A DNA stretch of 64,000 nucleotides from an uncultured Spirochaetales bacterium (GCA_949295125.1 CASFJV010000052.1:5686-69685); one strand, 5' to 3'; counted from the first letter of the stretch, positions 13,221-37,858 are shown. Notes: generated from the letters alone by a model not told the origin. Translations and numbers: made by a program.

Positions 13221-13223
13221 AAG

Positions 13224-14338: not shown

Positions 14339-14427
14339 ATAAAGAGGGTATTACAATCAGGCATTCCATGTTAATAACAAAAAGCAGGAAGTTGCCCTGC
14401 CCTGATCCATTTCCTATAATTACAGCT

Positions 14428-15522
14428 ATGAGACTGCTAATAATTAATCCTGGTTCAACATCCACGAAGATCAGTGTTTTTGAAGATGAGAGGAACATAT
14501 TCACAGAGAGTGTCTTCCATGATGCTCCAGAGCTTCTTGCATTCCCTTCAACAAATGATCAGCTGCCAATGAGGAAGAGTGTGACGCTCTTTCTTCTAAA
14601 AAAATACGGAATTCCCGCAGATACCATCGACGTCTTTGTAGGAAGGGGAGGCTGTGCATACAGCCAGAGGGAAGGTGTGATGCCGATTGATGAGCGCCTC
14701 TACCAGGACACCAAAGATGATAAGGGCGGAAGTGATCACCCGGCAAAACTGGGAGTGATGATGGCATATGACTTTGCCCGTGAATTCAATAAGCCTGCAT
14801 TCACGCTTAACCCTACCAATGTTGATGAGTTCATAGATGAGGCCAGGATCACGGGCATCAAAGGGGTCTACAGGAGAGCACAGTCCCATGTCCTGAACCA
14901 GAAAGGGATTGCCAGGCTTCATGCTGCAAAGATCGGCAGGAAGTATGAAGAGTGCAGCTTCATAGTTTCCCACATTGATGGCGGAATCACAATCGCAGCC
15001 CATAAGAATGGCCGCATGATAGATGGAACGGAAGGGGCTGGGGGAGATGGGCCTTTCACTCCGACAAGGCTTGGAAGCATACCTCTCATGGAAACTGCTA
15101 AATTCCTGGAGAGTCATGAACCGGCAGAACTTGAGGCAATGTGCTCACGCTCCGGCGGTTTTGTGAGCCATTTTGGAACAAGCAACGCTGACATCATCCA
15201 TAAAATGGCAGAAGACGGGGATGAGCATGCATCCATTGTATGGCGAACCATGATTTACCAGATATCAAAATCAATTGGTGCAATGGCTGCAGTCCTGGAT
15301 GGAAAGGTTGATGGCATACTCCTTACTGGCGGCCTTGTCCGCTTTTCCAGTATAGTGGAAGGCATTAAGGGAAAATGCTCCTGGATTGCTCCGGTTTCTG
15401 TCTATAAGGGGGAAGTTGAGCAGGAGGAACTCTGCTTTGAGGTTCTGAAGGTCATGAGAGGGGAAAAGAAGGCAAATGCATATACTGGAGAGCCTGTTTT
15501 CAAAGGCTATCCATGGGATTAG
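14428..15522 (+). CDS. buk: Butyrate kinase
   Basis: Starts MRLLIINPGSTSTKISVFEDE. ASKHA-fold motifs HIDGGITIAAH and GILLTGGL are present. The 50 upstream ORF-track codons are antisense overlap with chrA. Confidence 0.85.
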   Translation: MRLLIINPGSTSTKISVFEDERNIFTESVFHDAPELLAFPSTNDQLPMRKSVTLFLLKKYGIPADTIDVFVGRGGCAYSQREGVMPIDERLYQDTKDDKGGSDHPAKLGVMMAYDFAREFNKPAFTLNPTNVDEFIDEARITGIKGVYRRAQSHVLNQKGIARLHAAKIGRKYEECSFIVSHIDGGITIAAHKNGRMIDGTEGAGGDGPFTPTRLGSIPLMETAKFLESHEPAELEAMCSRSGGFVSHFGTSNADIIHKMAEDGDEHASIVWRTMIYQISKSIGAMAAVLDGKVDGILLTGGLVRFSSIVEGIKGKCSWIAPVSVYKGEVEQEELCFEVLKVMRGEKKANAYTGEPVFKGYPWD

Positions 15523-23697: not shown

Positions 23698-25506
23698 CTA
23701 CCTTCTCTTTTTCTTGCTTTTTGTTTTCTCTTTCCTCTTTTTGTTTATGCTTGGCTTTGGAGAGCCATCGAGACGGAGATCCTGTCCATACGGCTGGTAC
23801 TCTTCCTTTCTCCTTCTCCTTTCACGCCTTCCCATTCTCCCTTCAGCTTTATCCGGCCTGCTGCTTTTCTCTTCCCTGTCAAGTTCGTCTTCATGGGCTT
23901 TCGTGATTATGGATCTGCCCTTGCTGTTTGAATAGTGCTTCAGTATTTTTTCTGCAGCAGCTTCGGGAGCATTTAAAAATGAGAAATTCTCCATGACCTC
24001 AATTCCAGTCAGATCCTCATCCTTCACTCCGCTTACTTCAGCGCATATGCCCTGGGCAAGGCTCTTCTTTGTCAGGCCGTCCCTTCTTCCACGCGCAACA
24101 AACAGCCTTACAAGGGAACTTCCTTCCGCTTCTTTTGCCTTCTCTTTCCTTCCTTTTGACCTTTCCCCCTTTTCTGATGGGCTTGATATCTTCTTATACT
24201 GGCTCTTGTCAAGTTCATCCTTGTAGATTGATCCGATAAGTGCAGCAAATGCCCTCAGCGGATCCTTTTCTTCCTTCAGAAGTGAATATGCAATGGCTAC
24301 ATAGTCTTCCTTAGGATCAGCAGAGATCTTCTCCTTCAGGTCTGACATGATCTTCACGCGCTTTGCTGCAATAACTTCTTCAGGAGTTGGAACCTCTTGC
24401 TTCTCTATCTCACTGGATGTGACTTTCCTTATGAAGCTGAATCTTCTCTGCTCCCTTGGAGTTATGAACGTGATTGCAGTTCCCTCCTTTCCGGCTCTTC
24501 CTGTGCGCCCGACGCGGTGGATATATACCTCCGGATCTTCTGGAATGGAGTAGTTGATGACATGCGTAAGCTCATGGATGTCGAGACCGCGGGAAGCAAC
24601 ATCTGTCGCAACCAGGATTGAAAGGTGCTTTTCCTTCATTCTCTTTATTACTACTTCCCTTTCCCTCTGAGAGAGGTCTCCATGCAGGGCCTGAGCGTCA
24701 TAGCCGCGGCTGATAAGCTTGTTTGCAATCTCTTCGCACTGCACCTTTGTGCGGCAGAAGATCACTCCGTAGAAACCAACTTCCCTGTCAATTATCCTCG
24801 TAAGGGCTTCAAGCTTGTCAGACTCCCTTACCTCGAAATAGATCTGATGGGTATTCCTGCTTGAGATGTCTTTCAGTTCCGTTCTCACAAGCTGGTAGTC
24901 ATGCATGAAGCGTTCTGCAATGGAGAGCACGGGCTTTGGCATTGTGGCTGAGAACATGAGCATCCTCTTATTTTCCGGTGTCTCGCTCAATATTGCTTCT
25001 ATATCTTCAATGAAACCCATGTCGAGCATCTCATCAGCCTCATCAAGGACTGCGAATTTCAGATTTCCAAGCTTCAGTGTCCCTCTCTTTATGTGGTCCA
25101 GTACACGCCCTGGAGTTCCTACAACTACGTCAACTCCTTTCTTAAGGGCTTTAAGCTGAGTCTCCATGCTTGCCCCGCCGTATACTGTGAGAACTTCTAT
25201 TTCCTTGCTGCCCTTAAGGCTCTTGATCTCATCTGCAACCTGAAGTGCCAGTTCCCTGGTCGGGCAGAGTATCAGAGCTTCCGGCAGCTTTGCCTTTCCT
25301 TCAATAGTCTCAATGATGGGAAGTGCAAATGCAGCTGTCTTTCCTGTTCCTGTCTGAGCCTGTCCTATTACCTCCGTATTATCCTGCAGAAGCAGTGGTA
25401 TGCAGAGGCGCTGTATCTCTGTCGGCTCTGTAAATCCCTTTGCCTTTAGGGCCTCAATGGTCTTGTCGCTTAGACCTAGGTTCTTAAACTCTTCTAAATT
25501 ATTCAT
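23698..25506 (-). CDS. DEAD-box ATP-dependent RNA helicase (DeaD/CsdA-like) with a DbpA-type RNA-binding domain and a basic tail
   Basis: Q-motif GFTEPTEIQ, AQTGTGKT, DEAD (VLDEADEM), SAT and HRVGRTGRAG. The C-terminal part has a DbpA-like segment and a K/R-rich tail. Confidence 0.9.
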   Translation of the reverse strand: MNNLEEFKNLGLSDKTIEALKAKGFTEPTEIQRLCIPLLLQDNTEVIGQAQTGTGKTAAFALPIIETIEGKAKLPEALILCPTRELALQVADEIKSLKGSKEIEVLTVYGGASMETQLKALKKGVDVVVGTPGRVLDHIKRGTLKLGNLKFAVLDEADEMLDMGFIEDIEAILSETPENKRMLMFSATMPKPVLSIAERFMHDYQLVRTELKDISSRNTHQIYFEVRESDKLEALTRIIDREVGFYGVIFCRTKVQCEEIANKLISRGYDAQALHGDLSQREREVVIKRMKEKHLSILVATDVASRGLDIHELTHVINYSIPEDPEVYIHRVGRTGRAGKEGTAITFITPREQRRFSFIRKVTSSEIEKQEVPTPEEVIAAKRVKIMSDLKEKISADPKEDYVAIAYSLLKEEKDPLRAFAALIGSIYKDELDKSQYKKISSPSEKGERSKGRKEKAKEAEGSSLVRLFVARGRRDGLTKKSLAQGICAEVSGVKDEDLTGIEVMENFSFLNAPEAAAEKILKHYSNSKGRSIITKAHEDELDREEKSSRPDKAEGRMGRRERRRRKEEYQPYGQDLRLDGSPKPSINKKRKEKTKSKKKRR

Positions 25507-25515
25507 AGCGCATGA

Positions 25516-25544
25516 AGTCTATAGTATAAAATAACTTATTGCAA
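25516..25544 (-). promoter_or_regulatory. Candidate promoter of the helicase gene, implying a leaderless or near-leaderless mRNA
   Basis: On the minus strand, TTGCAA (25544-25539), a 17-nt spacer, then TAGACT (25521-25516). The ATG ends at 25504-25506, and there is no SD in between. Confidence 0.35.
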
Positions 25545-25790
25545 TATCTATTTTTAAGAAAAATCAACAGGAAAGCTGGTTTTAGAGGATGAAAAAGAGG
25601 CATTCAGGGCAGGATTGCCTTATGACATGCCATTTCAGTTTCCAGTCAAGTCAGATCCTGTTATCTGTAGTAATCAGCCAGTTTGGGGAAGATTCAAGGC
25701 TTTTCTGCTTTTGCAATGTTCTGAAAAACCATACTGCCAGGGGAAAATTCATTAATGATAAGTGCCAAAACCGGAGCTAAACTGAAATAA

Positions 25791-25806
25791 AGGCATTTTA
25801 ATGCCT
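25791..25806 (+). terminator. Weak hairpin plus T-rich tract with no annotated gene upstream
   Basis: AGGCA...TGCCT stem followed by GTTTAAGTTTTCTTTT. It lies 11 nt after the stop of the unsupported 63-aa ORF 25589-25780. Confidence 0.3.
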
Positions 25807-25824
25807 GTTTAAGTTTTCTTTTAA

Positions 25825-25854
25825 TTGACTAGCGTCATTTCTTGTTGATAAACT
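25825..25854 (+). promoter_or_regulatory. Candidate promoter for the LPP20-fold locus
   Basis: TTGACT (25825-25830), an 18-nt spacer ending in TG, then TAAACT (25849-25854). It lies about 40 nt upstream of the ATG at 25892. Confidence 0.3.
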
Positions 25855-25891
25855 AATTTTCGACATCTAATTTTGTTTCTCGGGGTTATGG

Positions 25892-28084
25892 ATGAAAAAG
25901 TTCGTTTCATTGCTTTTAGTGTATTTTATGTTGCTTCCGATCACATTTGCTCAGGATGTGACGGGAAATGGAATTGGAAGTACAGAAGAGGAAGCTTTAC
26001 GTTTTGCGCGAGAAGATGTAATCAGCCGTTTTTCAATCAATGTCTCTTCTCTGACATATACAGCAGATACAGACGATGGTGCATCAAATACATCATCTTC
26101 GATGTCCTCATACAGCCTTCAGTCCACATCATTCAATCTGTTGGGAAGTGTAGAGGATGTTAAGCAGGGAAAAGATGGCTACGTTGCTACATGTACGATA
26201 CCTGAAACATCAGCTCCGCTTTATGAAGCACAGCTGAATAACCTTTACAGCACAATCAATGCATTGAACAACCAGGTTGAAAGAGGAGATGCCCCAAGAA
26301 GCACTTACCTCAGGCTTATTACAGCCTTAAGGGATTATGAGCTTTACCAGACTGTTGTACTGACGCTCAATCCTTCAAGTTCTGTTGCAATGAGGAGCCT
26401 TCCCACTACCAGATCTGTAATTGAGAATGAATACCAGGCGATGCTCATCAGGGAAAACAACAATACCCAGATCACCGTTACAAACCTTCAGCAGCAGTCA
26501 GAAATGGGAATCCTCTCATTAGAGGGCAGGAGTGAGCTTAATGCAGCACTTGCCGCTCTGGAGGAGAACAGGAGGCAGCAGGAAGAGCTTAATATCCTTG
26601 CCCAGAGTGACTATGAACTGCAGAGGGAAGCATTCCAGCAGGAGATGGCAGCAACAGCACAGATGCTGCATGAAAACCTCTCATCCTATTTCACTGCGGA
26701 AGCAGCAGGCGGAGAGATGAATTATGCTCAGCTCATTAACCAGATAGAGGCTAACAGAGCTACCCTCCAGGCTATTAAGGACACACTCAACGACAGCCTT
26801 GGAAGCATCATGGATTCTTATGATGAGGAAGTTAAGAGGAGCAGGGAAGAAATCCTTCACTCCCCATACTCCCAGGATGAGCTTTATAACGGGCAGCCGA
26901 CGATGAGTGCCGTCAATTACAGGAATCAGAGGGCAGATGAAGCAGAAAAAGAGATAAGGGAGCGCTATAGTGCCCAGGCTGATTTGATATACAAGGAAGC
27001 ATTTGACAGGATGTCTGCCCTGACGGATTACACCCTCTCATATGTAGATGAGCTCAATGGAAAGACATTCAGGGTGAATTCATTTGATCCCGAAGTCTCT
27101 GCAGCTGTAGACAGGTTTGTTGAAAATGCAGGGCTCTTCAGCGGAATTGCAACAATCACAATTGGAAACTCATCAATTGACCTTATTTTCAGGATTCCTT
27201 ACGAAGCCTGGACAGGTGAGAAGGCTGCATCATCTTCTGATTTTGCAGCATTCACTCAGTACAGGGATACAGGAAATGACTGGCTTGATATCTTCACTAA
27301 GTTCCCGGAAATCTTCACGATTGAGTTTACATTCACTGTCAATAATGACCTCAGCTCTGAATATGAGATCACATTTGAAAGCTATACAATCACCAGGAAT
27401 GATACAGGGGAAGAGGTGTTCAGTGACAGCATCAGCCAGAACGACACCTTACGCTATCCTTCAAGGACGAGCCTGACAGATTTCACGGTATCAAATGGTG
27501 AACTGGTTGATTATGGAAAATACGTATATTCCAGAGAAAAAGTTGATCTTGGAATAACGGTATCTGATGAAGTTGAGAAGGAAGAAACGGCCGAGAGTTC
27601 AGCATCAGAAGTAAAGGAGGAAAAGGGCAGAAGCAGAACTCCTTTAAAGTCCTTCATGGATGATGAGCTTATGATAGAAGTCTATGGCAATGGGCTTTGG
27701 AACAGCACAGGATTTGATACCATGTCTATCGGCTTGAAGTTTGTTCCGACAACAAGGACTTTCACTTACGGCTTTGATGCAGAGTGGCTTTTCAGGCTGG
27801 ATCAGCCTGCAACTGTAAGCAAGGGATATATCGGGGTAGGACTCAACACTTTCTTCCCTGTTGCATCCTTTATGAATATCTATGTTGATGCCTCTGTCGG
27901 TGTTGGATCATGGTTTGGAGAAGGAATTGATCTTGCAGAAAGTGTTTTCTTCGGAGCTGTAGGAAGAGCCGGGTTCTATTTCGATCTTGGAAGCCTGTTT
28001 GCTCTGGATGTAGGAGGAACTGTTTCCTGGATGGACAGCACTCTCTACTATGGTGCACATCTTGGAGTTGTTTTCCACATATAA
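25892..28084 (+). CDS. Large secreted protein: LPP20-like N-domain, coiled-coil, beta-rich middle, beta-barrel-like C-terminus (paralog of 32114-34564)
   Basis: Signal peptide ...LLPITFA/QD. GNGIGSTEEEALRFAREDVISRFS resembles the LPP20 core. A long Q/E-rich helical region follows. The last ~130 aa are Gly/aromatic with alternating pattern. Blocks can be aligned by eye with the 816-aa protein. Confidence 0.6.
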   Translation: MKKFVSLLLVYFMLLPITFAQDVTGNGIGSTEEEALRFAREDVISRFSINVSSLTYTADTDDGASNTSSSMSSYSLQSTSFNLLGSVEDVKQGKDGYVATCTIPETSAPLYEAQLNNLYSTINALNNQVERGDAPRSTYLRLITALRDYELYQTVVLTLNPSSSVAMRSLPTTRSVIENEYQAMLIRENNNTQITVTNLQQQSEMGILSLEGRSELNAALAALEENRRQQEELNILAQSDYELQREAFQQEMAATAQMLHENLSSYFTAEAAGGEMNYAQLINQIEANRATLQAIKDTLNDSLGSIMDSYDEEVKRSREEILHSPYSQDELYNGQPTMSAVNYRNQRADEAEKEIRERYSAQADLIYKEAFDRMSALTDYTLSYVDELNGKTFRVNSFDPEVSAAVDRFVENAGLFSGIATITIGNSSIDLIFRIPYEAWTGEKAASSSDFAAFTQYRDTGNDWLDIFTKFPEIFTIEFTFTVNNDLSSEYEITFESYTITRNDTGEEVFSDSISQNDTLRYPSRTSLTDFTVSNGELVDYGKYVYSREKVDLGITVSDEVEKEETAESSASEVKEEKGRSRTPLKSFMDDELMIEVYGNGLWNSTGFDTMSIGLKFVPTTRTFTYGFDAEWLFRLDQPATVSKGYIGVGLNTFFPVASFMNIYVDASVGVGSWFGEGIDLAESVFFGAVGRAGFYFDLGSLFALDVGGTVSWMDSTLYYGAHLGVVFHI

Positions 28085-28142
28085 ATGGAAATTGCCTGGC
28101 AGGTTTGCCAGGAGGAAATAGTTAGTTTCTGGGAGAAAAAGG

Positions 28143-28586
28143 ATGAAGAAAAAAACGTGTTTGATTTTCCTTATGGTGTTTGTTCTGATCTCTATATTGA
28201 GTGCAGAATCAGTGAATCCATACAGGGTTATTGCGTGGGATGAGATAAAGGCTACAGATCCTGTGAACATGGCAGGGGATGCCTATACAAATGGATATGT
28301 GAATAATGGAATGTCTGATTCTACGCTTTTATACAATCTGAGAAATCAGTACAGGACCATGACATGTACTGTAGGGCCTACAGAGAAGGCAAATATAGAT
28401 AGGACCTATTCTGTAGAATTCTATGTGGATAACAACCTTGCAAAGACAGTTACATTTACAGGCATGGATTTCCCTGTTGAGGTGGAGGTTGACCTGAATT
28501 ATGCCAGACAGCTCAGGGTTTTCCTGGATTATTCTGTTTCCAGAATGAATGATGTTGTCGCAATAACAGATATTGATTTCAGGTAA
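28143..28586 (+). CDS. Small secreted beta-sandwich protein, NPCBM-like
   Basis: Signal peptide. The pattern AGDAYTNG...LLYNL...YRTMTCTVG...YSVEFYVDN...VEVEVDLNYARQLRVFLD...VVAITDIDF resembles NPCBM/NEW2-type domains. Confidence 0.5.
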   Translation: MKKKTCLIFLMVFVLISILSAESVNPYRVIAWDEIKATDPVNMAGDAYTNGYVNNGMSDSTLLYNLRNQYRTMTCTVGPTEKANIDRTYSVEFYVDNNLAKTVTFTGMDFPVEVEVDLNYARQLRVFLDYSVSRMNDVVAITDIDFR

Positions 28587-28604
28587 TATATGGAGGGGAA
28601 AAGT

Positions 28605-29906
28605 ATGGCTAGGAAAATAAGGACAATAGCTCTGCTCTTGATTGCTGCTGCAGTGCTCTCATCATGTTCCATCCTATTTGGTTCATTCGGGGGCAATACT
28701 GCAACATCCTATTATGCAAATGTAACTACTGATGAAAGCCTCTATGTCTATAATCCGGAGCTTGGAATCAGTGTTAACCGTTATGATGTCTTCTGTCTTG
28801 GTGTTGACTATAGTGAGGATAACCCATTCTATCGCGTTGTAACATATGATCCTGATGAGGTTATCCTGCTTACACATGATTACTCATCAATCAATGAAGA
28901 GGAACTTGCCGCTAATGATTTTGCTGAAGATGAGGAAGTAAACGTAGCTGTTGTAACAGGAAGCGATCCAATTTACTTCGTGCCATGTGCAGATGAAAGT
29001 GCATCTACTACGGTCACAGTTGAGCCTGTAAGTGATGATTTCAGCCGCAACTATGAGAAGTTCGGTTTTACAGTTAATATAACTGTTCCTGAGACAGTGG
29101 AAATGGCAGATACTGCTTCTACAAGGCTTTACGGCCTTGATTTCTCTGGTTCCCTTATCAATGAGACACTCGACGGGGTGGAGCTCAGGGGAGTCAGGTA
29201 TTTCAGCACCAACAGGGTTGAAGTCAGGTACAGTTCAATGACTGCTTCCCTTCATGATTATGTTGCAACCGTAACTTCTGAGGGCGCATATCCAAATGAT
29301 CAGGTTAAGGTCTTCTTTAATTCTGAGATGACTGAAGCAACCCATAAATACAGTACAAGCAGTTCCAGCTACTCTCTGTCATTCTATGTTACATTGAGTC
29401 CGGATCTTGAATCAGAGGCTTATAAGAATAAGGAAGATCTGACGCTGAGGCTCAATATCTATGATAAAACCGACGGGGTTGCCTATACAGACACATTCTC
29501 AATACCAATCACGACACTGGATGATTCCATGTCTGAGATCACAGGATTTGCTGCTTCAACAAATGGTGTTGCTGGAGCTCCTGCAATGGTTGATACCCGT
29601 GTTGCCGTAGATGCTTCATTTGAAGCATTCTCAGAGTTCGACAGGTTCAGGACGGTAAGGATGGTAGTAAGGGATCCTAATTCTGAGGATGTCATGGATC
29701 ACAGAGGCTCAGTCTGGCCGAACGGCAGTGCCACAGTTGGAACTGCTGCAGGCGGATGGGGTGAGACTGAACTCTTTGCAGATGGCAAATATTTCGCCTC
29801 ATTCATTCCTAAGGAAGCTGGCACATACAAAGTCAATGTCTATGGATATGACGATGATGGATACAATTTCTGCGCAAAGACTTTTGAGTTTGAGGTCGTC
29901 AGGTAA
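28605..29906 (+). CDS. Lipoprotein of unknown function with an Ig-like C-terminal domain
   Basis: Lipobox LSSC. The ATG at 28605 follows GGAGGGG. The C-terminus (GKYFASFIPKEAGTYKVNVYGYDDDGYNFCAKTFEFEVV) looks like an Ig/FN3-type sandwich. Confidence 0.6.
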   Translation: MARKIRTIALLLIAAAVLSSCSILFGSFGGNTATSYYANVTTDESLYVYNPELGISVNRYDVFCLGVDYSEDNPFYRVVTYDPDEVILLTHDYSSINEEELAANDFAEDEEVNVAVVTGSDPIYFVPCADESASTTVTVEPVSDDFSRNYEKFGFTVNITVPETVEMADTASTRLYGLDFSGSLINETLDGVELRGVRYFSTNRVEVRYSSMTASLHDYVATVTSEGAYPNDQVKVFFNSEMTEATHKYSTSSSSYSLSFYVTLSPDLESEAYKNKEDLTLRLNIYDKTDGVAYTDTFSIPITTLDDSMSEITGFAASTNGVAGAPAMVDTRVAVDASFEAFSEFDRFRTVRMVVRDPNSEDVMDHRGSVWPNGSATVGTAAGGWGETELFADGKYFASFIPKEAGTYKVNVYGYDDDGYNFCAKTFEFEVVR

Positions 29907-29919
29907 TTGATTCCTGTTT

Positions 29920-29943
29920 ATTGGGCTGAGAATTCAGCCCAAT
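29920..29943 (+). other. Intercistronic stem-loop (10-bp stem)
   Basis: ATTGGGCTGA-GAAT-TCAGCCCAAT lies between the stop at 29906 and the likely GTG start at 29960. No U-tract follows. Confidence 0.5.
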
Positions 29944-29959
29944 GCTAGAGGAATTAATT

Positions 29960-30685
29960 GTGAAGAAGGCTTTATTTATACTTCTGGCAGTCATTATGGC
30001 CGTTTTCTCATCCTGTGCAACGTCAGGGGAGGGGAAGATGTCTTCAGATGATGAGTTTGCCAATGAGATAAATTCTGTATTCGAGCAGTACAGCAATCTT
30101 GGAGAGCAGGTTTTCTATGGCTTTTCAGGTCCATATACAAGTAAGGAAAAGGGAATCATGGCGGCAACAGAGAATGCTTACATGATGGCTCTGCTTTATG
30201 AAGACCTTGCGATGAAGGTTGATGTCAGCATTGATGTGGATACTGCCCGCAACCGTGACAGTTTCAAGACATATACGGACGCATTATACGATCAGTCAAG
30301 GCTTTCAGAGATTGCATCAAGGCTTGAGATCATCGACATCAAGTGGCTTGGAGGGGATATCGGGGCTGCGGTTGTCGCAACTTATATCAATCCAGCTTCT
30401 TCAAGGCCTGACTCTGATTACGTTTATGACAGCGGTACGATCTTCAGGTATTTCTATGTCCAGGATTCGATGTTTGCAGCCGCATACAGCGCAGCTGTGA
30501 ATCTTGCGCTCAACAATCCGGAGCTCAGCGCGGTTGTATCAAATACTGAGCTGGATAATGATGAGATGACTGAGCAGTCCTACCAGATACATCTTTCGAG
30601 GCTGGATGGCTTCGAGATCTTATCATATTCCTATAATCCTGAAACAAAGGAGTACACATGCACAGCCCGTGCATTGAAACATTAA
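29960..30685 (+). CDS. Lipoprotein, LPP20-like fold (divergent)
   Basis: A GTG at 29960 gives (M)KKALFILLAVIMAVFSSC with a lipobox. FYGFSGPYTSKEKGIMAATENAYMMALLYEDLAMKV resembles the LPP20 core motif. Confidence 0.55.
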   Translation: MKKALFILLAVIMAVFSSCATSGEGKMSSDDEFANEINSVFEQYSNLGEQVFYGFSGPYTSKEKGIMAATENAYMMALLYEDLAMKVDVSIDVDTARNRDSFKTYTDALYDQSRLSEIASRLEIIDIKWLGGDIGAAVVATYINPASSRPDSDYVYDSGTIFRYFYVQDSMFAAAYSAAVNLALNNPELSAVVSNTELDNDEMTEQSYQIHLSRLDGFEILSYSYNPETKEYTCTARALKH

Positions 30686-30726
30686 ACTAAGGCAGGTATG
30701 GCCTAGAAAAATATTAGGAGGAATAA

Positions 30727-31302
30727 ATGAAAAAAGCTTTATTCATTATTTCAATGGTAGCACTTTTAGTATTCGCTAGCTGTGCATCAACAGAGACAGC
30801 AGAGGCAGCAGATCCTAATGCAATGCCTGAATGGGTTATGACACTCGGTGAATCAGAGAACACTCAGGATATGCACTACTCAGTAGGTGCTGCAAAGATG
30901 TCAAACCAGATGAACTCTCTCAAGAGGGCTCAGGCTGAGGCAAGGAATGCAATGGCAGAATGGATCAATGTATCTGTTGAAGAGATCATCATGACATATA
31001 CAAATGATGCAGGAAGCGATGCAAACCGCCAGGCAATGGATGCATTTGAGACACTCTCAAAGCAGGAAGCAAATGCAATTCTTTCAGGTTCTTCACAGGC
31101 TGCTATGTGGATTGCACCAGATGGAACAGTATATGTTCTTATGGGCATCCCTGTAGAGAACGTTGCATCACAGATGGCTGGCTATGTTGACGAAGTCACA
31201 TCAAATGAGACATTCGTAAAGAACGAGGCAGCAGCAGAAGCAAACAACATGATGAGAAATGCAATCAACACATATTTTGGTGTTAATGGAGTTGCAGAGT
31301 AA
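30727..31302 (+). CDS. LPP20-family lipoprotein
   Basis: Lipobox FASC. MPEWV...YSVGAAKM...SLKRAQAEARNAMAEWINVSV and ...WIAPDGTVYVLMGI match the H. pylori Lpp20-type pattern. The gene has its own terminator. Confidence 0.7.
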   Translation: MKKALFIISMVALLVFASCASTETAEAADPNAMPEWVMTLGESENTQDMHYSVGAAKMSNQMNSLKRAQAEARNAMAEWINVSVEEIIMTYTNDAGSDANRQAMDAFETLSKQEANAILSGSSQAAMWIAPDGTVYVLMGIPVENVASQMAGYVDEVTSNETFVKNEAAAEANNMMRNAINTYFGVNGVAE

Positions 31303-31315
31303 TCAGTCAGTTCAG

Positions 31316-31340
31316 AGGCAGGGAATTCCCTGCCTTTTTT
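31316..31340 (+). terminator. Rho-independent terminator
   Basis: AGGCAGGG-AATT-CCCTGCCT followed by TTTTTT, 14 nt after the stop at 31302. Confidence 0.8.
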
Positions 31341-31351
31341 AAGGGGTAGAG

Positions 31352-32023
31352 ATGAAGAAATTAATTCTTATCCTCCTATCCATTATCCTGATAGTATCCT
31401 GTGCAAGCACAGATACGGATATCAAAGCTGTTAATGAGGATGGATCTCCTATCTGGACTACAGAGGTTCCTCAGAGTAAGAAATTATTCTACGGGGTAGG
31501 AAGGGCAAAGCTCTCCAATGAGGCTAACAGCCAGAACTCTGCAGATGCAAATGCAAGGGCAGATCTGGCAAGGAAACTTCAGTCAACAATTAACGAGGCA
31601 ACGGTAAACTATACCAATGATGCAGAGGGAAGCCTGCTTAACGCCTATGAGCAGCTTACGATGCAGGTAGTTAACTTTACCATGCAGGGAGTTAAGACTG
31701 AGCAGCACTGGACTGCTCCAGATGGAACAGTCTGGTCATTGGTATCTATCGAGGCCAAGAAAGTGGATGACCTTTATGAGCTGGCTGCCAACGACTATCT
31801 TGTGCAGATAGAAGAGAAGAAAGCTGAGACAGACAGCAAGCTCAATGCACTTTTGGCAGAGCTTGCCAAGATAGAAGGGGATACATCCGCAGCTGAGGCT
31901 GAGGCAAGGCGTGTGGCAGAAAGCCAGATCAGGGAATTTAATGGAACCCTTGAGGGCATTGATGCCAAGGCACTGGCAACAGCTATTGATGCTTACACTA
32001 CGCAGCTTGGATATGAGGAATAA
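31352..32023 (+). CDS. LPP20-family lipoprotein with a C-terminal helical extension
   Basis: Lipobox VSC. SPIWT...FYGVGRAKL...SADANARADLARKLQSTINE and HWTAPDGTVWSLVSI are present, followed by a coiled-coil tail. Confidence 0.7.
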   Translation: MKKLILILLSIILIVSCASTDTDIKAVNEDGSPIWTTEVPQSKKLFYGVGRAKLSNEANSQNSADANARADLARKLQSTINEATVNYTNDAEGSLLNAYEQLTMQVVNFTMQGVKTEQHWTAPDGTVWSLVSIEAKKVDDLYELAANDYLVQIEEKKAETDSKLNALLAELAKIEGDTSAAEAEARRVAESQIREFNGTLEGIDAKALATAIDAYTTQLGYEE

Positions 32024-32030
32024 AATCATG

Positions 32031-32057
32031 GGCTCTCTCCTTCAGAGGGCCTTTTTT
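32031..32057 (+). terminator. Rho-independent terminator
   Basis: GGCTCTC / GAGGGCC stem (one G-U pair), a 7-nt loop, then TTTTTT at 32052-32057. Confidence 0.65.
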
Positions 32058-32113
32058 GCTTTCAGGAGCTAAAGTTCCTGAAGAGAGCAGATAGCAGTAA
32101 AAATGGGAAAACT

Positions 32114-34564
32114 ATGAAAAAGGCATTAGGCATATTTGTACTGATTTTTATATTTGCTTTGCCTTTATGGGCAGCAGATTTATCAGCAACGGGATATGGA
32201 AGGACGCTGGATGAGGCACGCACAGATGCAAAGATCCAGCTGGCAGGAAGCATTTCCACGCATGTTTCCAATATAGTTTCAGTGCAGACGGAGGAAGACA
32301 GCACTGGCAGATCCTTTTTTGAGTCCTTTTTCTCAAGCAGCGTGCATGAGTCTGAATTTGAACTGAAAGGCACAATTGAAAGCAATCCGCAGAATGTGGA
32401 TAACACATGGCAGATCACACTGACTCTTCCATCATCTGCAGCCCCGGTATACTATGATGACCTCATCCGCCTGAACAGGGATATCACTCAGCTCTATGGG
32501 AGGCTTGGAAACCTCGAGGATTACAGGGCGGTAACAGATAAGCAGTATGAGCAGCTGCTTAACCTTCTTGAGGCATATGAGGCAACAAGGCTTGTTGCAA
32601 TACAGCTTGATCCATCAAAAGCTGCAGACATTGCAGAGCTTCCTGTATCACTGACGGTTGTAGAGACTCAGTATGATGCCAAGAAACAGGAAGAGCTGAA
32701 TGCGCTGATGATTGAATACGCATCATTTGATGAGCTGATGGAATTAGGCCTTATCAGCGAAGAGCAGATGAGCAATTATGACGATCTAAGGGATATGATC
32801 GCTGAAAGAAAAAAGAGTGATGAGGAGCGCATCAGGGAGCAGCAGGAAAAGACTGCAGAGATGCTCAGGGAGGCCCAGGCTGCATTCAGCAATGATGCAA
32901 ATATCGACTATGAAGCACTGCTGAGTGAAAGCGGATCCAAATCCCTGACAGACATCATCAATTCAGTTGAATCCAGGAGAAGATCGTTCAAGCAGGTCAA
33001 AGGCATAATGGATCAGCGTCTTGGTACCATCTATAATTCCATGCAGCAGGATTGCAGGGATTTCTATGATGCGAGGATGAGTGAGCCATATGCAGCCATA
33101 GATATGGAGAAGAAGGGGTTCATCTTCAAGAGGGAACGTCCTACTGATGAGGCTGTGGAAACGAGGAAGAAGGGTGTCAATGCCTATATAGAAGACAATA
33201 TAATGCCGCAGTACGTGAATGCCGCAAGCGATGAGTATAAGCTTTATGTCCAGAGGCTTTCCACCATTACCCGTGCGGCAATGAATGACCTGGCAGAACT
33301 GAATGGCACGGAGTACACCTACAACACTTACCAGAACCAGATGGCAGTTGCAATTTCAGGCTATAACAGGAACACAAATGCATTTACAGGCTATGTGAGC
33401 CTTACGATAGGAAGCCAGAGCGCACGCTTTGATTTTGAAATCCCTTACAAGGTATGGTTCGGGAAAGAGATGCCTGAAGCCGAGGATGATATCTTTGAAT
33501 ATGAGAATGCAAGAATAGTCGCCAGCGATTGGATGAATAGGCTCATGTCAGATACCTCAATCCTTCTTGTTGAAGTGAAATTCACGGTTAAAGGCTACCT
33601 TGACGGCTCTAAGTATGATATTGCCTTCAAGTCATTCAACATTGCCCGCCTGGATACCGGGGATGTCATAATCCGCGATAAAGCGGTAGGAAAGAAGGTA
33701 ACTGTTAACCTCTGGTCTGAAGATTCAACAGACCTTTCATCGTATGCTCCGGAAGAAGATGATGCAAAAGCAATGATTTCATATATGGATGCCTCTTCAA
33801 TTGAGGATGAGGTGCTGAAGGTTGCAGGGATCACGGATGATGACATTGCTAAGCTCAAGTATGGCTATGTTCCGCCTAAGAAAGAGGAGCAGGCACTTGC
33901 TAAGAGCTCTTCAGTGATGGAAAGATCCCAAAATGCAGCAGGTAATTCAGGGGTAGCTGCAAGGAGCATGAAAAGCACTTTTGAATCTGTCCATGAGACT
34001 GGAAGTGAGATGATAGAAAGGAATAAGGCGGCAGCATCGGCAATCCAGAGTGAACCGGCTGAGATAAAAGATCCGGTTGATCTTGTATTTTCATTCGGGC
34101 TTGGAAGCAGCATGATGTTTGAGATTAATGATGCAGAGGGCACTTTCTACTCTTTTGGTGCGGATATGGCATTCAGGATGGGCATGAAGGATTTATTTGC
34201 GGAGAACAATGATCTTGTATTCAATGCAGGCTTTGAAATGAATGGTATTTACTATTCTGCAGATTCATCATATCCATCATATGAGGCGGTAAGCGGTTTC
34301 ATTGGAGTGGAACTGCTTGGAAGGCTTGGCCTTGGATACTATTACTCCAATCCATCTGGCATGTCCGGAGGTTTTGACCTCAATGGAACACTTTCGTTCA
34401 GGGAGCATGTGAATGACATTTTAGTGGCAGTGGAGGCAGATGCATATCTGGGGCTTCAGGAGATGATGACTTTCGGCCTGCGTTTCAGAATTGACTGCTA
34501 TGATCCCTCATATGCCAGCATTGGGGAGCTTGCAACCGGAGTATTCTTCAGGTATTACTTCTAG
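32114..34564 (+). CDS. Large secreted protein, paralog of 25892-28084 (LPP20-like N-domain, coiled-coil, beta-rich middle, beta-barrel-like C-terminus)
   Basis: Signal peptide ...LPLWA/AD and ATGYGRTLDEARTDAKIQLAGSIS. Blocks shared with the 730-aa protein: TLPSSAAPVYY/TIPETSAPLYE, SLTIGSQSARFDFEIPYKVWFG/ITIGNSSIDLIFRIPYEAWTG, and KFTVKGYLDGSKYDIAFKSFNIARLDTGD/TFTVNNDLSSEYEITFESYTITRNDTGE. It ends ...GVFFRYYF. Confidence 0.6.
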   Translation: MKKALGIFVLIFIFALPLWAADLSATGYGRTLDEARTDAKIQLAGSISTHVSNIVSVQTEEDSTGRSFFESFFSSSVHESEFELKGTIESNPQNVDNTWQITLTLPSSAAPVYYDDLIRLNRDITQLYGRLGNLEDYRAVTDKQYEQLLNLLEAYEATRLVAIQLDPSKAADIAELPVSLTVVETQYDAKKQEELNALMIEYASFDELMELGLISEEQMSNYDDLRDMIAERKKSDEERIREQQEKTAEMLREAQAAFSNDANIDYEALLSESGSKSLTDIINSVESRRRSFKQVKGIMDQRLGTIYNSMQQDCRDFYDARMSEPYAAIDMEKKGFIFKRERPTDEAVETRKKGVNAYIEDNIMPQYVNAASDEYKLYVQRLSTITRAAMNDLAELNGTEYTYNTYQNQMAVAISGYNRNTNAFTGYVSLTIGSQSARFDFEIPYKVWFGKEMPEAEDDIFEYENARIVASDWMNRLMSDTSILLVEVKFTVKGYLDGSKYDIAFKSFNIARLDTGDVIIRDKAVGKKVTVNLWSEDSTDLSSYAPEEDDAKAMISYMDASSIEDEVLKVAGITDDDIAKLKYGYVPPKKEEQALAKSSSVMERSQNAAGNSGVAARSMKSTFESVHETGSEMIERNKAAASAIQSEPAEIKDPVDLVFSFGLGSSMMFEINDAEGTFYSFGADMAFRMGMKDLFAENNDLVFNAGFEMNGIYYSADSSYPSYEAVSGFIGVELLGRLGLGYYYSNPSGMSGGFDLNGTLSFREHVNDILVAVEADAYLGLQEMMTFGLRFRIDCYDPSYASIGELATGVFFRYYF

Positions 34565-34959
34565 TCCTCTTCCTTTTCTGCTCTGAGGCTTATCCCGGCA
34601 ATGACTACGATAGCGCCCATAGCAAGGAGGAAGATGGAGTAGAACCTGTCCAAAAATGCCCTGGAACCGTTTTCCACATAGCTATCAGAGAGGTACACTC
34701 TTGTGTATACAGCATTGATGTCTGATGGCTTAAGGCTCAGCGCCTTCTCTTTTTCTATGACATAAACTCCATCGCTGAAAAGCTCTTCAAATGCCTTTTC
34801 CGTCTTCTCCTCATTCAGCGTATATGCATATATGGAAATGCTCTCCCTCCCGTCCTGGCTTGAAAAGCCGAACATATGGCACTTGAGAAGGAAAGAAAAG
34901 AGCATGATCAAGCAACCAAATGCAATAATGGCATTCCCGACTGTCTTTCTTACTTTCAT
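34561..34959 (-). CDS. Small bitopic membrane protein (2 TM), unknown function
   Basis: 132 aa with hydrophobic segments at both ends. It is the last gene of a four-gene minus-strand operon. Its stop overlaps the stop of the 816-aa gene (CTAG). Confidence 0.5.
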   Translation of the reverse strand: MKVRKTVGNAIIAFGCLIMLFSFLLKCHMFGFSSQDGRESISIYAYTLNEEKTEKAFEELFSDGVYVIEKEKALSLKPSDINAVYTRVYLSDSYVENGSRAFLDRFYSIFLLAMGAIVVIAGISLRAEKEED

Positions 34960-34989
34960 GAGAGTTAAAATATTAGCAGAATTTGTATT

Positions 34990-35931
34990 TTAGATCGAGA
35001 GAGAGCGTTGTTTATCTGGAGCAGAGATGTCTGGATCGGTGTTGTCTATCTGGAAAGACAGGATCCTCAGCCTGCCTGTCTTCTCATTCAGCTCCGCAAT
35101 ATGGTAGTATCCTTCACTCTCAAGCCCCCAGAGAAGGTCCTTCTTGTGGTAAGCTGGAAAAACATATTCCTTGAATGACTCTGAATAGCTGTTGAGAACA
35201 TCCCCGATATGGTGGTGCGCTGCAAAATAGAGCGCTCTTTTATCATGGAGGATGGAAATAAGCTCATTTCTCTCATTCACATCTGAAAGAACGAACTGGA
35301 AATGGCTCTGTATGGCTCCAGAGAGGCTCATCGGTACATGGGAGAGGACGATGCTGTACTTTGCGTCACTTTTTTCAATTGCTTCCTCTAGGTATTTAAG
35401 CTGATCCCTTCCAAGGATTCTCTTTGCACTGTCTATCTTATAGATTGCAGTATCTGAGATCCTGTATGCTCCGATTGTTGACGGGCACTTATCGTAGCCT
35501 TCAAGTATCTTCTCATAATCTTCCTTATCGATTGAATTGTAATCATGGTTGCCAGCAATGGATATCAGGGGGAAATCCTTTACTGCTTTTATCCTGTCAA
35601 GCAGAGCCCTGAAAACTTCCGCATCTTCCTCTGAGCCTTCATCCATCATGTCGCCAAGAAGGAGAACGGCGTCAATCTCATCCTTATGCTTAGAGAGGAA
35701 AGAGAGCATGTTTTCATCATTCCTATGGACTCCGCTGTCCCTGAGTTCCCTGTTCAGGTGTGCATCTGAAAGGACCAGGAAACGCAGGCTGTCTCCTACT
35801 GTGACTCTCTCTATATCCAGTGGATCTGAAAATGGATTTTCCTCAAGCTGCAGCCTGTCATAGAACTGGATTTCACATGATAATGCCATAAGCATTACGG
35901 CAATGACTGTAAAAATAATCTTCCTTTTCAT
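34990..35931 (-). CDS. Calcineurin-like metallophosphoesterase lipoprotein
   Basis: Lipobox LSC. Phosphoesterase motifs are LSDAHL, LLGDMMDEG, AGNHD and a later HH. Confidence 0.75.
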   Translation of the reverse strand: MKRKIIFTVIAVMLMALSCEIQFYDRLQLEENPFSDPLDIERVTVGDSLRFLVLSDAHLNRELRDSGVHRNDENMLSFLSKHKDEIDAVLLLGDMMDEGSEEDAEVFRALLDRIKAVKDFPLISIAGNHDYNSIDKEDYEKILEGYDKCPSTIGAYRISDTAIYKIDSAKRILGRDQLKYLEEAIEKSDAKYSIVLSHVPMSLSGAIQSHFQFVLSDVNERNELISILHDKRALYFAAHHHIGDVLNSYSESFKEYVFPAYHKKDLLWGLESEGYYHIAELNEKTGRLRILSFQIDNTDPDISAPDKQRSLSI

Positions 35932-36584
35932 ATTCTAATCTCAAAACCGATGCGTGCCTTTATGTCCTTGACTATTATCGGAGCCTCATCAAGATAATCC
36001 CCGTAGATAGCGTATATGTCGAATGTCACAGCATTCCCGTTTATATCCAGGTGGCTCCTGAATCCTGTTATCAGGAGAGCCTGGAATGCTGTTTCAAAGA
36101 ATGAGTAGGAGGAGGAATATACATATACTGATATGTCTTCTGAGATGTCTGCTCCAAGCTCAAGAAGGAAATTTGGCGTGATGCTGAAATATACATCATC
36201 AGAATAGATTGAATAGTCAAGGCCGCCGATGATGCCGATACGGTAATTGAAGTGGAACCATGATGCGCTTATATCCTGCCCGAAATTTATTGCAGCATGA
36301 GCCATGCCTCCTTTGCTTTCAAAGCTGTGATAGAAGGATGAGAAAAGATCAAGGCTCATGGAGTGGGAAAAGCGGAAATCATATTCCCCTGAAAGCCTTA
36401 TATCATAAGGGACCGTAGAGGCAAGGCCAACCTTATAGCTGTCATCATGGAAGTAGGCGCTCAGGGAGAAAGACGGGCCGTAGAATGATGAGAGTCCATA
36501 CCCGCCAGATCCTCCTATATAGGCTGCACTGAGGCTGGAGGCAATTGAAAGTGAGATTAAGATGGCGGCTATTTTCCTTTTCAC
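35928..36584 (-). CDS. Small outer-membrane beta-barrel protein, unknown function
   Basis: Signal peptide ...SLSA/AY. It is rich in Tyr/Gly/Ser with alternating hydrophobic pattern and ends ...RIGFEIRI. It shares a 4-nt overlap with each neighbour. Confidence 0.55.
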   Translation of the reverse strand: MKRKIAAILISLSIASSLSAAYIGGSGGYGLSSFYGPSFSLSAYFHDDSYKVGLASTVPYDIRLSGEYDFRFSHSMSLDLFSSFYHSFESKGGMAHAAINFGQDISASWFHFNYRIGIIGGLDYSIYSDDVYFSITPNFLLELGADISEDISVYVYSSSYSFFETAFQALLITGFRSHLDINGNAVTFDIYAIYGDYLDEAPIIVKDIKARIGFEIRI

Positions 36585-37858
36585 AGCAGGCTGCTCCTTA
36601 TCCTATCTGTATCGATGTCCCTGTATTTCTCATTTCCTGAGTGGTCTATCCAGCTCAGGATGTGGTCAAGGCGGTTGCGCATGCTTGGATGTGGATCATT
36701 AAAGCCTCCGGAAGGAACATCTATAAAGCCTGCCATAAAGCGCATGATACCCTTTGCTTCTCCGATTTTGACTGCGAACTTATCTGCCGCATACTCGCTT
36801 TTCTTTCCTCCAATGAGGTAGCAGACATAGTGTATGCTGTTCATGATCTTCTGTATGGCTGTCAGGAGGACCATGAACACTATCCATATGAGGTAGGTGA
36901 AGACATTCACCTTCTCTCCCTCCTTAGGCCCGATTGCTGCTATGAAATAGCCTGGGATCATGATGAAAGAGAATATGAGATTGAAATTTGCAATTGCTAT
37001 TGTGTTTGCTGTCACATCAAGATGTGCAATATGTCCTAGCTCATGCGCTATGACGCCCCTGATCAGCTCTTCATCAGAGCCTTCCAGGGCACCCTTGTTC
37101 AATGCAATTTTGTTATGTGCGAACGCATATGCATTGAAAGAGTCGCTGTAGTCGATATAGAACCTGACCCTGTGGGGGATTCCCCATGATTTCCTTTTCC
37201 CTTCCTTCACCACTTCCTCTGCAATCCTGAGTGCATCTGAGTCCAGGATATAATCCATCTTCCTGGAGTATTTGAGCCATACAGTAAGCCTTGAAAACAG
37301 CCATAGCGATATAAAGTAGGCGAATGCAAACTGGAGGTTAAAGTATTCTATAAAAGCCAGTGCTGATATAAGCGATGCCCCTGCGTCTGGAAAAATAAGT
37401 GAAAGGAGCCCGAGCGCGGAAGAAAGCGGGATAAGGAAAAACGCATTCAGCTCAAAGTATGACGTAATGAAATAAAAGACAGCAAAGCCTATTATTGTGG
37501 TAATGACCATGTAAGGCCGTGCTATGAGCTTCCAGTAGCATCTGAATATAAGCTTGAATAATGCATAGATAATGAAGAGCAGGGCAATTAGGCCTGGAGC
37601 ATAAAGCCTTATTAAGGAGCCTGCCTCTGTGTATAGAAGGAAGCCATGGACTTTTGATGCAATATATGAAATAGGCATTCCGATTGCCATTGTGATATGG
37701 CCAATGGCATTCAGCAGCCAGCTGTAGCCTAATGCATCGAGTATAAGGGCTATTATGAGCAGGGCGGCAAATATGAAGAACAGCACAAGAATGAAAGAAA
37801 AGATACGTGAAAGTGCTTTGCTGAGCCTGTTTCCACCCGCTTTATATGAAATTGCCAT
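36581..37858 (-). CDS. M48-family (HtpX-like) zinc metalloprotease with an extended N-terminal multi-TM domain
   Basis: HELGH zinc motif (VIAHELGHIAHLD) with a downstream EYAAD. About 6 TM helices precede the protease domain and 2 lie within it. Confidence 0.8.
   Translation of the reverse strand: MAISYKAGGNRLSKALSRIFSFILVLFFIFAALLIIALILDALGYSWLLNAIGHITMAIGMPISYIASKVHGFLLYTEAGSLIRLYAPGLIALLFIIYALFKLIFRCYWKLIARPYMVITTIIGFAVFYFITSYFELNAFFLIPLSSALGLLSLIFPDAGASLISALAFIEYFNLQFAFAYFISLWLFSRLTVWLKYSRKMDYILDSDALRIAEEVVKEGKRKSWGIPHRVRFYIDYSDSFNAYAFAHNKIALNKGALEGSDEELIRGVIAHELGHIAHLDVTANTIAIANFNLIFSFIMIPGYFIAAIGPKEGEKVNVFTYLIWIVFMVLLTAIQKIMNSIHYVCYLIGGKKSEYAADKFAVKIGEAKGIMRFMAGFIDVPSGGFNDPHPSMRNRLDHILSWIDHSGNEKYRDIDTDRIRSSLL

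Follow-up and report, generated by a model that had tools for sequence, protein, structure and literature searches.

A conserved six-gene module of uncultured Spirochaetota encoding LPP20 lipoproteins and a giant protein with a predicted outer-membrane barrel

In the genome of an uncultured Spirochaetales bacterium (GCA_949295125.1), seven consecutive open reading frames (ORFs) encoding exported proteins lie on the + strand of a 64,000-nucleotide (64-kb) stretch of contig CASFJV010000052.1 (5686-69685). This whole stretch is referred to below as the window, and positions are counted from its first nucleotide. Comparison of related loci indicated that the conserved unit consists of the first six of these genes (25892-32023), and gave strong evidence that the six are functionally linked. 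The module is real, conserved and undescribed; it includes two new protein families, one of which supplies a putative LPP20-fold envelope assembly with a giant subunit predicted to be barrel-anchored. An initial annotation of the window had described a locus of seven genes. That description held for the six conserved genes; the seventh, giant B, was set apart because a terminator-like hairpin precedes it, because it is absent from the closest related locus (L002, see below) and because genes of its type occur elsewhere without partner genes. The features of the locus are as follows (lengths in amino acids, aa).

25892..28084, + strand: gene 1, giant A, 730 aa; ORF founding an unannotated family
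25952..26203, + strand: LPP20/SHS2-like N-terminal domain of giant A, aa 21-104; hhalign, PDB profile match and AlphaFold2 model
27668..28078, + strand: predicted C-terminal 8-stranded beta-barrel of giant A, putative outer-membrane anchor, aa 593-729; AlphaFold2 model and Foldseek
28143..28586, + strand: gene 2, small secreted NPCBM/CBM51-like beta-sandwich protein, 147 aa; PF08305, signal-peptidase-I leader
28605..29906, + strand: gene 3, 433-aa lipoprotein (LSSC); ORF with sub-threshold Pfam matches only
29960..30685, + strand: gene 4, 241-aa lipoprotein (FSSC); ORF founding a second unannotated family
30727..31302, + strand: gene 5, LPP20a lipoprotein, 191 aa (FASC); PF02169
31352..32023, + strand: gene 6, LPP20b lipoprotein, 223 aa (IVSC), with a C-terminal extension of ~85 aa; PF02169
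32030..32062 (or 32030-32052), + strand: terminator-like hairpin closing the six-gene unit; 9-bp stem with 5 G-C pairs, then a T-run
32114..34564, + strand: gene 7, giant B, 816 aa; ORF, giant A paralog from a different subfamily
25825..25854, + strand: sigma-70-like promoter match upstream of giant A; consensus scan, TTGACT, spacer of 18 nucleotides (nt), TAAACT, TG extension

Close relatives were encoded in five GTDB species genomes, all of uncultured Spirochaetota and including Candidatus Ornithospirochaeta avicola and Candidatus Aphodenecus pullistercoris, and further contigs were found by exact-protein look-ups. Beside a giant gene, the gene set was present fully or partly at the following loci.

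L002 (giant 61% identical): order of genes 1-6 retained, with a convergent 132-aa gene immediately behind; giant B absent
L003/L007/L008 (47%): giant and NPCBM gene, then giant, NPCBM gene and gene 3; an inverted LPP20b-LPP20a-gene 4 block; a third giant-like gene
L004 (38%): order 1-2-3-5-4-6
L005 and L011: giant and NPCBM gene
L010 (26% guanine plus cytosine, G+C; contig of 2.05 Mb, near-complete genome): giant, NPCBM gene and two lipoprotein genes, one of them LPP20-like
L013: LPP20a and giant
L014: two giants in tandem, next to LPP20a-gene 4-LPP20b and to a gene for a transglutaminase-core protein (7499-8563, - strand)
L018: giant; LPP20a-gene 4-LPP20b-transglutaminase-LPP20 lipoprotein-LpoB/CsgG-like
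L019 (39% G+C): giant-NPCBM-gene 3-LPP20-LPP20a-gene 4-LPP20b-transglutaminase; a divergent LpoB-like gene and an LPP20 lipoprotein gene

Genes 1-6 were fully collinear in L002 and, save for one extra LPP20-like gene, also in the distant L019. LPP20a, gene 4 and LPP20b accompany the giant A type as a constant set of lipoproteins. The initial annotation had made its interpretation depend on a conserved gene order; such conservation was observed in L002 and largely in L019, and not in L003 and L004, where the genes were re-ordered or inverted. Taken together, the module loci spanned 26% to 55% G+C, with inversions and re-orderings among them. L018 and L019 had been reached from distant homologs of gene 4, and this reciprocal search led back to giants.

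The structure of giant A was modelled with AlphaFold2 on a 46-sequence alignment (predicted local distance difference test score, pLDDT, 84.2; predicted template modelling score, pTM, 0.65). The predicted parts were a signal peptide (aa 1-20), an LPP20/SHS2-like domain (21-104), a helical region (105-388) of seven helices of 11-51 residues each, which may correspond to the coiled coil of the initial annotation, a beta-rich domain with two additional helices (392-521), a linker that is disordered in the model (522-590) and a barrel of eight long strands (593-729, pLDDT 82-96). When the full model was compared with the PDB by Foldseek, the barrel was the one part that gave matches, to NspA, OmpA-TM, OmpX, Ail, OmpW and OprF-N, with E values of 9e-6 to 1e-4 and target template modelling scores (TM-scores) of 0.6-0.73; among these were NspA (1p4t; E 9e-6, target TM-score 0.69), OmpA-TM (1qjp; 0.71) and OprF-N (4rlc; 0.73). 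A search of BFVD with the full giant A model likewise returned barrel matches only. By its predicted structure, the C-terminal segment of giant A is an 8-stranded outer-membrane barrel of the OmpA/OmpX/NspA class. A classical autotransporter (type Va) was considered and rejected, since the model has 8 strands and not 12, the linker is disordered, and autotransporter barrels were matched at TM-scores of 0.2-0.3 only.

The other end of the giants appears to be LPP20-like, as had been proposed at the outset. With the signal peptide removed, the N-terminal domain of the giants aligned with the LPP20 pair at an hhalign probability of 90% (E 1.6e-6), and the best PDB match of the giant family profile was 4kzs (E 0.01), which is entered as an "LPP20 lipofamily protein"; OmpX came next, matched by the barrel part (E 0.025). 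The giant profile also scored LPP20a/b proteins at 1e-6 to 1e-8, and sub-threshold PF02169 matches were present in 10 of the 86 giant-family members scanned (5/46 and 5/40); Pfam gave no PF02169 match in giants A or B themselves. These alignments support homology between the giant A N-terminus and the LPP20 domain at the domain level, by a signal that does not depend on the signal peptide. Because the giants carry signal-peptidase-I signals, they would be homologous to LPP20 without being lipoproteins. Comparison of the giants with Pfam, NCBIfam and PDB sequences yielded nothing significant, and OMP_b-brl likewise had no significant match among the window proteins. No Foldseek match below E 0.01 was obtained in the PDB or BFVD for the N-terminal 570 residues of giant A, nor any PDB match below that value for residues 105-590.

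In the model, the N-terminal domain has the order beta-alpha-[insert]-beta-beta, with strand 23-29, helix 32-47, insert 49-80 and strands 87-93 and 96-103. The insert is Ser/Thr-rich, free of gaps and conserved in length across the family, with an alternating pattern around the turn formed by a conserved central DDG. It has full alignment occupancy and a conservation close to that of the structured parts, yet it was left unmodelled (pLDDT 32-39); the other low-confidence segments of giant A are, in contrast, gappy and poorly conserved.

Genes 5 and 6 encode two LPP20 lipoproteins, in agreement with the initial annotation. Both exceeded the PF02169 gathering threshold of 25.9 bits, LPP20a with 32.1 bits (E 1.6e-7, profile positions 1-95 of 97) and LPP20b with 36.2 bits (E 8.5e-9, positions 1-96 of 97). 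The two proteins are 37% identical, each with a lipobox, read by eye, after a K-rich hydrophobic leader, and the profile of the pair matched Helicobacter pylori Lpp20 (5ok8) at E 7e-7. Orthologs of LPP20b were found in L002, L003, L004, L014, L018 and L019.

Gene 2 was correctly recognized as NPCBM-like from the beginning: its product matched PF08305 at E 5.9e-8 and 33.2 bits (gathering threshold 23.9) over profile positions 16-120 of 137, and the gene-2 family profile weakly matched the CBM51 structures 2vmh/2vmg in the PDB (E 0.005). Genes of this type directly follow a giant gene in L002, L003 (twice), L004, L005, L007, L010, L011 and L019, forming at least nine gene pairs, with an overlap of 4 nt between giant and NPCBM gene in L003 and L005. 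Homologs of gene 3 occupy the same position in L002, L003/L007, L004 and L019 (595 aa there). All Pfam matches of gene 3 were sub-threshold (CBM9_1, E 2.4e-4; Y_Y_Y; Filamin), and its profile had no match in the PDB. To judge from these matches, the protein may contain beta-sandwich domains; the more specific proposal of an immunoglobulin-like (Ig-like) C-terminus found nothing beyond them. An alternative start of gene 3 lies at 28590, 15 nt upstream (MEGKSMARK…), and the homolog alignments are compatible with either start.

Gene 4 had been taken for a divergent LPP20-like lipoprotein, an assignment that was not sustained. The hhalign probability of 90% obtained with the leader in place fell to 0.5% after the signal peptide and lipobox were trimmed, showing the match to be an artefact, and gene 4 had no Pfam match, no PDB profile match and no PDB Foldseek match below E 0.01; Lpp20 (5ok8) and 4kzs were both present in the PDB set used for the sequence searches. 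The count of five LPP20-like domains at the locus was thereby reduced to four that are supported. The AlphaFold2 model of gene 4 (pLDDT 78, pTM 0.70) consists of two tandem alpha/beta units. Its family comprises 32 homolog clusters, none of them named and none with a Pfam domain. In L004, L014, L018 and L019, a gene of the gene-4 type lies directly between the two LPP20 types, and in the window, L002 and L003/L007 directly before LPP20a-LPP20b. The start was called at a GTG (29960); an in-frame ATG 18 nt upstream (29942) gives a canonical MKKALF… leader, and homolog alignments fit both.

Giants A and B are paralogs, as first annotated, with 26% identity over 530 aa in BLASTP (E 1e-46), a similarity limited to the first ~520 residues. 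Both had also been said to end in beta-barrel-like segments. For giant A this was upheld by the predicted eight strands and their Foldseek matches; for giant B the evidence is a weak profile match. An initial barrel hidden Markov model (HMM) match on giant B was discarded as partly circular, since giant B was itself in the template, and was replaced by a run without its subfamily. With the giant-B-like rows removed from the template, the giant B C-terminus matched the giant-A-type barrel weakly (hmmsearch 9.4 bits, where the highest of 200 shuffles scored 6.2; hhalign 44%). This region contains ~8 dyad-repeat segments, ends in ...FFRYYF and is barrel-like in composition, from which a C-terminal barrel may be inferred.

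In L002, the closest relative, giant B is missing between gene 6 and the convergent 132-aa gene. The giant B stop codon overlaps the 3′ end of this convergent gene by 4 nt in the window (34561-34564), and the gap between gene 6 and the 132-aa gene in L002 measures 5 nt. As the neighbours are the same, giant B would either have been inserted precisely at this site or have been lost precisely from L002. The giant-B-like loci L015-L017 lack NPCBM, LPP20 and gene-4 homologs, and the P0047 subfamily of giants (L012, L020-L025) lacks any partner genes; where the contig reaches far enough, genes of both types sit among housekeeping genes. Giant B is probably a separate transcription unit, and is best seen, on these comparisons, as an adjacent paralog of the solo type and not as part of the conserved module.

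Since giant-B-type and P0047 genes occur without partners, the giant family is wider than the module. An exhaustive profile search of 1.84 billion representatives gave 196 giant-family clusters (clustered at 50% identity) at E<=1e-3, of which 44 reached E<=1e-30. Most members are 700-850 aa long, with homology over about positions 1-550, and the members scanned carried neither names nor significant Pfam domains, a weak OMP_b-brl match appearing in one of 86. A word-indexed homolog search with giant B found giant B itself only. The Joint Genome Institute (JGI) metagenome scan produced no locus with the close giant subfamily, and solo giants only with the P0047 subfamily. The family was seen in organisms of 26% to 60% G+C. 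In addition, the N-terminal module of the giants, which comprises the LPP20-like domain and two helices (~residues 1-170), exists as stand-alone proteins of ~180 aa, and elsewhere is fused (P0055-P0143) to unrelated domains, namely DUF4384 (7/40), Lcl_C, BspA-type leucine-rich repeat (LRR), FGE-sulfatase, chitobiase-C/Fn3-associated, caspase or RCC1 domains. This distribution suggests a module for anchoring or oligomerisation that can be moved between proteins. The barrel, too, is found as a gene of its own: a 227-aa stand-alone protein with a signal peptide, encoded directly upstream of a giant-B-like gene (L017:1703-2386), matched the barrel profile of the giants at E 6e-13.

The seven ORFs are separated by gaps of 58, 18, 53, 41, 49 and 90 nt, and all seven products have a leader (basic, then hydrophobic) when the translations are read by eye, so that the coordinates, the common strand and the export of all seven proteins given in the initial annotation were confirmed. 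Leaders of the signal-peptidase-I type were seen in three of the seven, giant A (TFA/QD), the 147-aa NPCBM-like protein (LSA/ES) and giant B (LWA/AD), and a lipobox, again by eye, in four (LSSC in the 433-aa protein, FSSC in gene 4, FASC in LPP20a and IVSC in LPP20b). The hairpin between gene 6 and giant B was the top-scoring terminator-like site within 25400-35100. The promoter match at 25825-25854 is a weak pattern match, such matches being fewer in the region than in its shuffles.

That no enzyme, ATPase or transporter is encoded in the locus, another of the original observations, was confirmed for the locus in the window by Pfam and NCBIfam and did not extend to all of the distant versions. 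An exported transglutaminase-core protein (Transglut_core, 51 bits) is encoded in three of these, L014, L018 and L019. In L018 and L019, where the added genes lie at 11451-14661 and 11302-14536, there is also a further LPP20 lipoprotein of 331-335 aa and an LpoB/CsgG-like protein of 370 aa, which scored 30.4 bits against LpoB (gathering threshold 22.3) and a borderline 20.4 bits against CsgG (threshold 20.8). No homologs of the transglutaminase-core, LpoB/CsgG-like and 335-aa LPP20 proteins were found anywhere in the 64-kb window.

The rest of the window is ordinary chromosome, with genes for cardiolipin synthase, TrpR, a DEAD-box helicase, Trk potassium transport, CTP synthase and ABC/MacB transporters. 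Of these, the helicase gene is the upstream neighbour of the locus (23698-25506, - strand); its product has a long, highly basic, Lys/Arg/Glu-rich C-terminal tail of ~150 aa that appears to be unrelated to the locus. Downstream lies a convergent cluster (34561-37858, - strand) that encodes, in addition to the 132-aa membrane protein, a lipoprotein of the metallophosphoesterase type (PF00149), a Gly/aromatic-rich protein of 218 aa and an M48 peptidase; all but the peptidase gene are syntenic in L002 directly after gene 6. The 218-aa protein has a signal peptide and no Pfam match, and may be a small barrel of the outer membrane; the barrel profile of the giants did not match it. An AAA_14/DUF4143 ATPase gene is located ~5 kb downstream of giant B (39830-41149), and one of the same architecture directly follows the extended cluster in L018 (14711-15982); as such genes are common, this recurrence is probably a coincidence.

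The judgement of the initial annotation that the locus matches no known envelope system was borne out: for the giants, gene 4 and the cluster we found no Pfam or NCBIfam family, no PDB sequence match and no description in the literature searched, where no paper named LPP20 together with NPCBM and those listed for LPP20 with spirochaetes or DUF4384 deal with other subjects than this cluster. Among known systems, the H. pylori lpp20 operon (HP1454, HP1456 = Lpp20, HP1457) comes closest; it encodes several LPP20-fold exported proteins, both lipoprotein and secreted, and no enzyme (PMC11756786). Unlike the locus, this operon lacks a giant barrel-anchored protein, an NPCBM-like protein and the gene-4 family, and Lpp20 and HP1454 interact with the flagellar proteins FlgP and FapH, a context that is not present at the locus. 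FlgP, which makes up the basal disk, forms concentric rings below the outer membrane; it has a long unstructured tether, and its ring-forming insert follows the SHS2 helix and precedes strand 2. FlgT, of the same fold, is part of the flagellar motor (PMC12222027, PMC11756786). The FlgP/FlgT disk of Campylobacter, Helicobacter and Vibrio is the closest mechanistic model; as modelled, the giants share the SHS2/LPP20-type fold and a conserved insert at the FlgP position. The giants differ from FlgP in having a predicted C-terminal 8-stranded barrel anchor in place of an N-terminal lipid and ~420 extra helical/beta residues, and they show no significant sequence match to FlgP and no flagellar gene context.

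Residues 593-729 of giant A share their predicted fold with the OmpA N-domain, OmpX, NspA, Ail, OmpW and the OprF N-domain and, as in OmpA, the barrel is joined to a domain, here putatively, in the periplasm; in contrast to OmpA, the order is reversed (periplasmic part first, barrel last) and there is no OmpA_C peptidoglycan-binding domain. The Tpr/MOSP family of treponemes combines a periplasmic N-domain with a C-terminal barrel, a bipartite design like that predicted for the giants. However, no sequence or Pfam relationship connects the two, and the giant barrel is much smaller (8 strands) and preceded by other N-terminal domains. LpoB spans the periplasm on a long flexible linker, and the extended cluster of L018 and L019 includes an LpoB/CsgG-like protein. 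The kinship of the LpoB/CsgG fold to LPP20 had been asserted in the initial annotation; in the window there is no LpoB/CsgG homolog, and nothing ties the locus to PBP1B activation or to curli genes. The CsgG curli secretion channel was likewise dismissed as a candidate, since the window proteins had no PF03783 match.

We propose, tentatively and at somewhat below an even chance, that genes 1-6 are an envelope module of gut-associated Spirochaetota that makes a non-enzymatic periplasmic scaffold tethered to the outer membrane, in which LPP20-fold domains would oligomerise and CBM-like subunits would bind envelope glycan. In 8-stranded barrels both termini lie in the periplasm, so that the body of the giant would be periplasmic and tethered to the outer membrane, its 570 residues hanging on a flexible linker of ~70 residues, much as FlgP and LpoB hang from a lipid anchor. 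The LPP20-like head of the giant could then oligomerise with the LPP20 lipoproteins, and the Ser/Thr-rich insert would stand, by analogy, at the topological position of the ring-forming hairpin of FlgP. The NPCBM-like protein and the 433-aa lipoprotein would supply beta-sandwich modules of the sugar-binding type that could hold peptidoglycan or another envelope glycan, and the outcome would be a structure that connects the outer membrane, as scaffold or tether, with the layers beneath it. In the distant versions, the transglutaminase-core and LpoB/CsgG-like proteins would serve as optional accessories. By analogy with known LPP20-fold proteins, the locus products may assemble into a single oligomeric structure at the periplasmic side of the outer membrane.

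Several points weigh against such a scaffold. Many giant-family members, including those of the giant B and P0047 subfamilies, occur without partner genes, which implies that a giant can work alone. No recognisable fold relatives were found in the PDB for gene 4 (by Foldseek) or for the 433-aa protein (by profile). The usual ligands of the NPCBM/CBM51 fold are extracellular, host-type glycans that contain galactose, which would better suit a role at the surface, and in spirochaetes many lipoproteins are exposed there. The analogy with the FlgP hairpin is one of topology, and in H. pylori Lpp20 the region matching the FlgP hairpin is helical; we know of no function even for Lpp20 itself. Contacts between the locus proteins are likewise proposed by analogy. 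In a more ambitious form of the scaffold reading, which we regard as unlikely, the giants and their partners would build a previously unseen supramolecular layer or array of rings, specific to spirochaetes, beneath the outer membrane, with barrel-hung LPP20-fold oligomers and CBM-like subunits gripping the cell wall, in replacement of Lpp/OmpA/Pal-type tethers, which these bacteria are not known to possess.

An unlikely alternative places the complex on the cell surface, for glycan binding, adhesion or nutrient capture: the giant would be barrel-anchored, the lipoproteins flipped to the surface, and the CBM51/NPCBM- and CBM9-like modules would bind host or dietary glycans in the gut. The above-threshold NPCBM match with its weak CBM51 counterpart in the PDB, and the sub-threshold CBM9 and Ig-like matches of the 433-aa lipoprotein, are in keeping with this, as are the names of two source genomes, Ornithospirochaeta avicola and Aphodenecus pullistercoris, which suggest that they come from the gut or faeces of birds. 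Moreover, distant N-module proteins are fused to BspA-type LRR, Lcl_C and chitobiase-C/Fn3-associated domains, typical of surface proteins, and L019 carries such a fusion gene directly upstream of its cluster. Against a surface location, barrels of the OmpA/OmpX/NspA class are known to have periplasmic termini and a pore too narrow for a 570-residue passenger, the NPCBM-like protein has a signal-peptidase-I leader and no anchor, and in no locus was a TonB-dependent receptor, glycoside hydrolase or ABC sugar transporter linked to the cluster. We assign next to no probability to the last possibility on this side, that there is no system and that the locus is a chance run of unrelated exported proteins. 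Other giant subfamilies do occur alone and giant B lies outside the conserved unit, but for genes 1-6 this explanation is effectively refuted by synteny. Giants are accompanied by the same five partner families at loci of varying G+C (26-55%), order and orientation, and the search begun from gene 4 returned to giants; the neighbourhood check thus agrees with the original view that these are not unrelated lipoproteins.

Two further explanations, both of which we hold to be distinctly improbable, take up the likeness to characterized LPP20-related proteins. In one, the locus would encode an accessory of the periplasmic flagellar apparatus, a FlgP/FlgT-like disk or bushing beneath the outer membrane. 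Spirochaetes have periplasmic flagella. LPP20/SHS2-fold proteins with a known structural role are all flagellar (FlgP, FlgT and FlgQ, the last resembling a double FlgP), and Lpp20 and HP1454 of H. pylori co-purify with FlgP and FapH (PMC12222027, PMC11756786). However, neither the larger ORFs scanned in the window nor the fetched loci carrying gene calls included a flagellar gene, and the LPP20 pair profile matched the 52-copy "Lipoprotein" chain of 9yec at E 0.41 only. Ornithospirochaeta and Aphodenecus are, moreover, presumably placed near Sphaerochaeta, a non-motile lineage without flagellar genes, which would count against a flagellar role. In the other, the module would be a CsgG/LpoB-type device for export or assembly of an extracellular or periplasmic polymer, with an oligomeric beta-pore formed from the LPP20 proteins or from the conserved, amphipathic and Ser/Thr-rich hairpin of the giant N-domain and a transglutaminase-core protein that processes or cross-links the substrate. 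The LpoB/CsgG-like and Transglut_core proteins of the distant clusters would fit such a device, as would the alternation of residues around the DDG turn of the insert, which stayed unmodelled in the monomer. Yet neither of these two partner genes is present in the 64-kb window, the cluster contains no repeat-rich, amyloid-like gene for a candidate substrate, and the giant already carries, by prediction, a conventional barrel anchor.

The envelopes of spirochaetes are poorly understood, and little is known about how the outer membrane is attached to the wall, above all in uncultured gut lineages; to our knowledge, spirochaetes lack a classical Braun lipoprotein tether. Unannotated envelope clusters are common in metagenome-assembled genomes, and for the one described here the evidence is computational, the carriers are uncultured and the function is inferred. 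This work defines two unannotated families, the giants (~196 clusters) and gene 4 (32 clusters), together with a recurrent module that joins a predicted OmpA-like anchor to LPP20-fold domains. If the module were instead a surface glycan-binding complex, it would represent a new type of gut-colonisation factor. If the layer or ring-array version were correct, the ring-building principle of FlgP would be in use outside flagella. Should the scaffold that we favour prove true, the LPP20-fold building principle would extend from flagellar motors to the general envelope, and the LPP20 family, long a puzzle, would gain a testable role.

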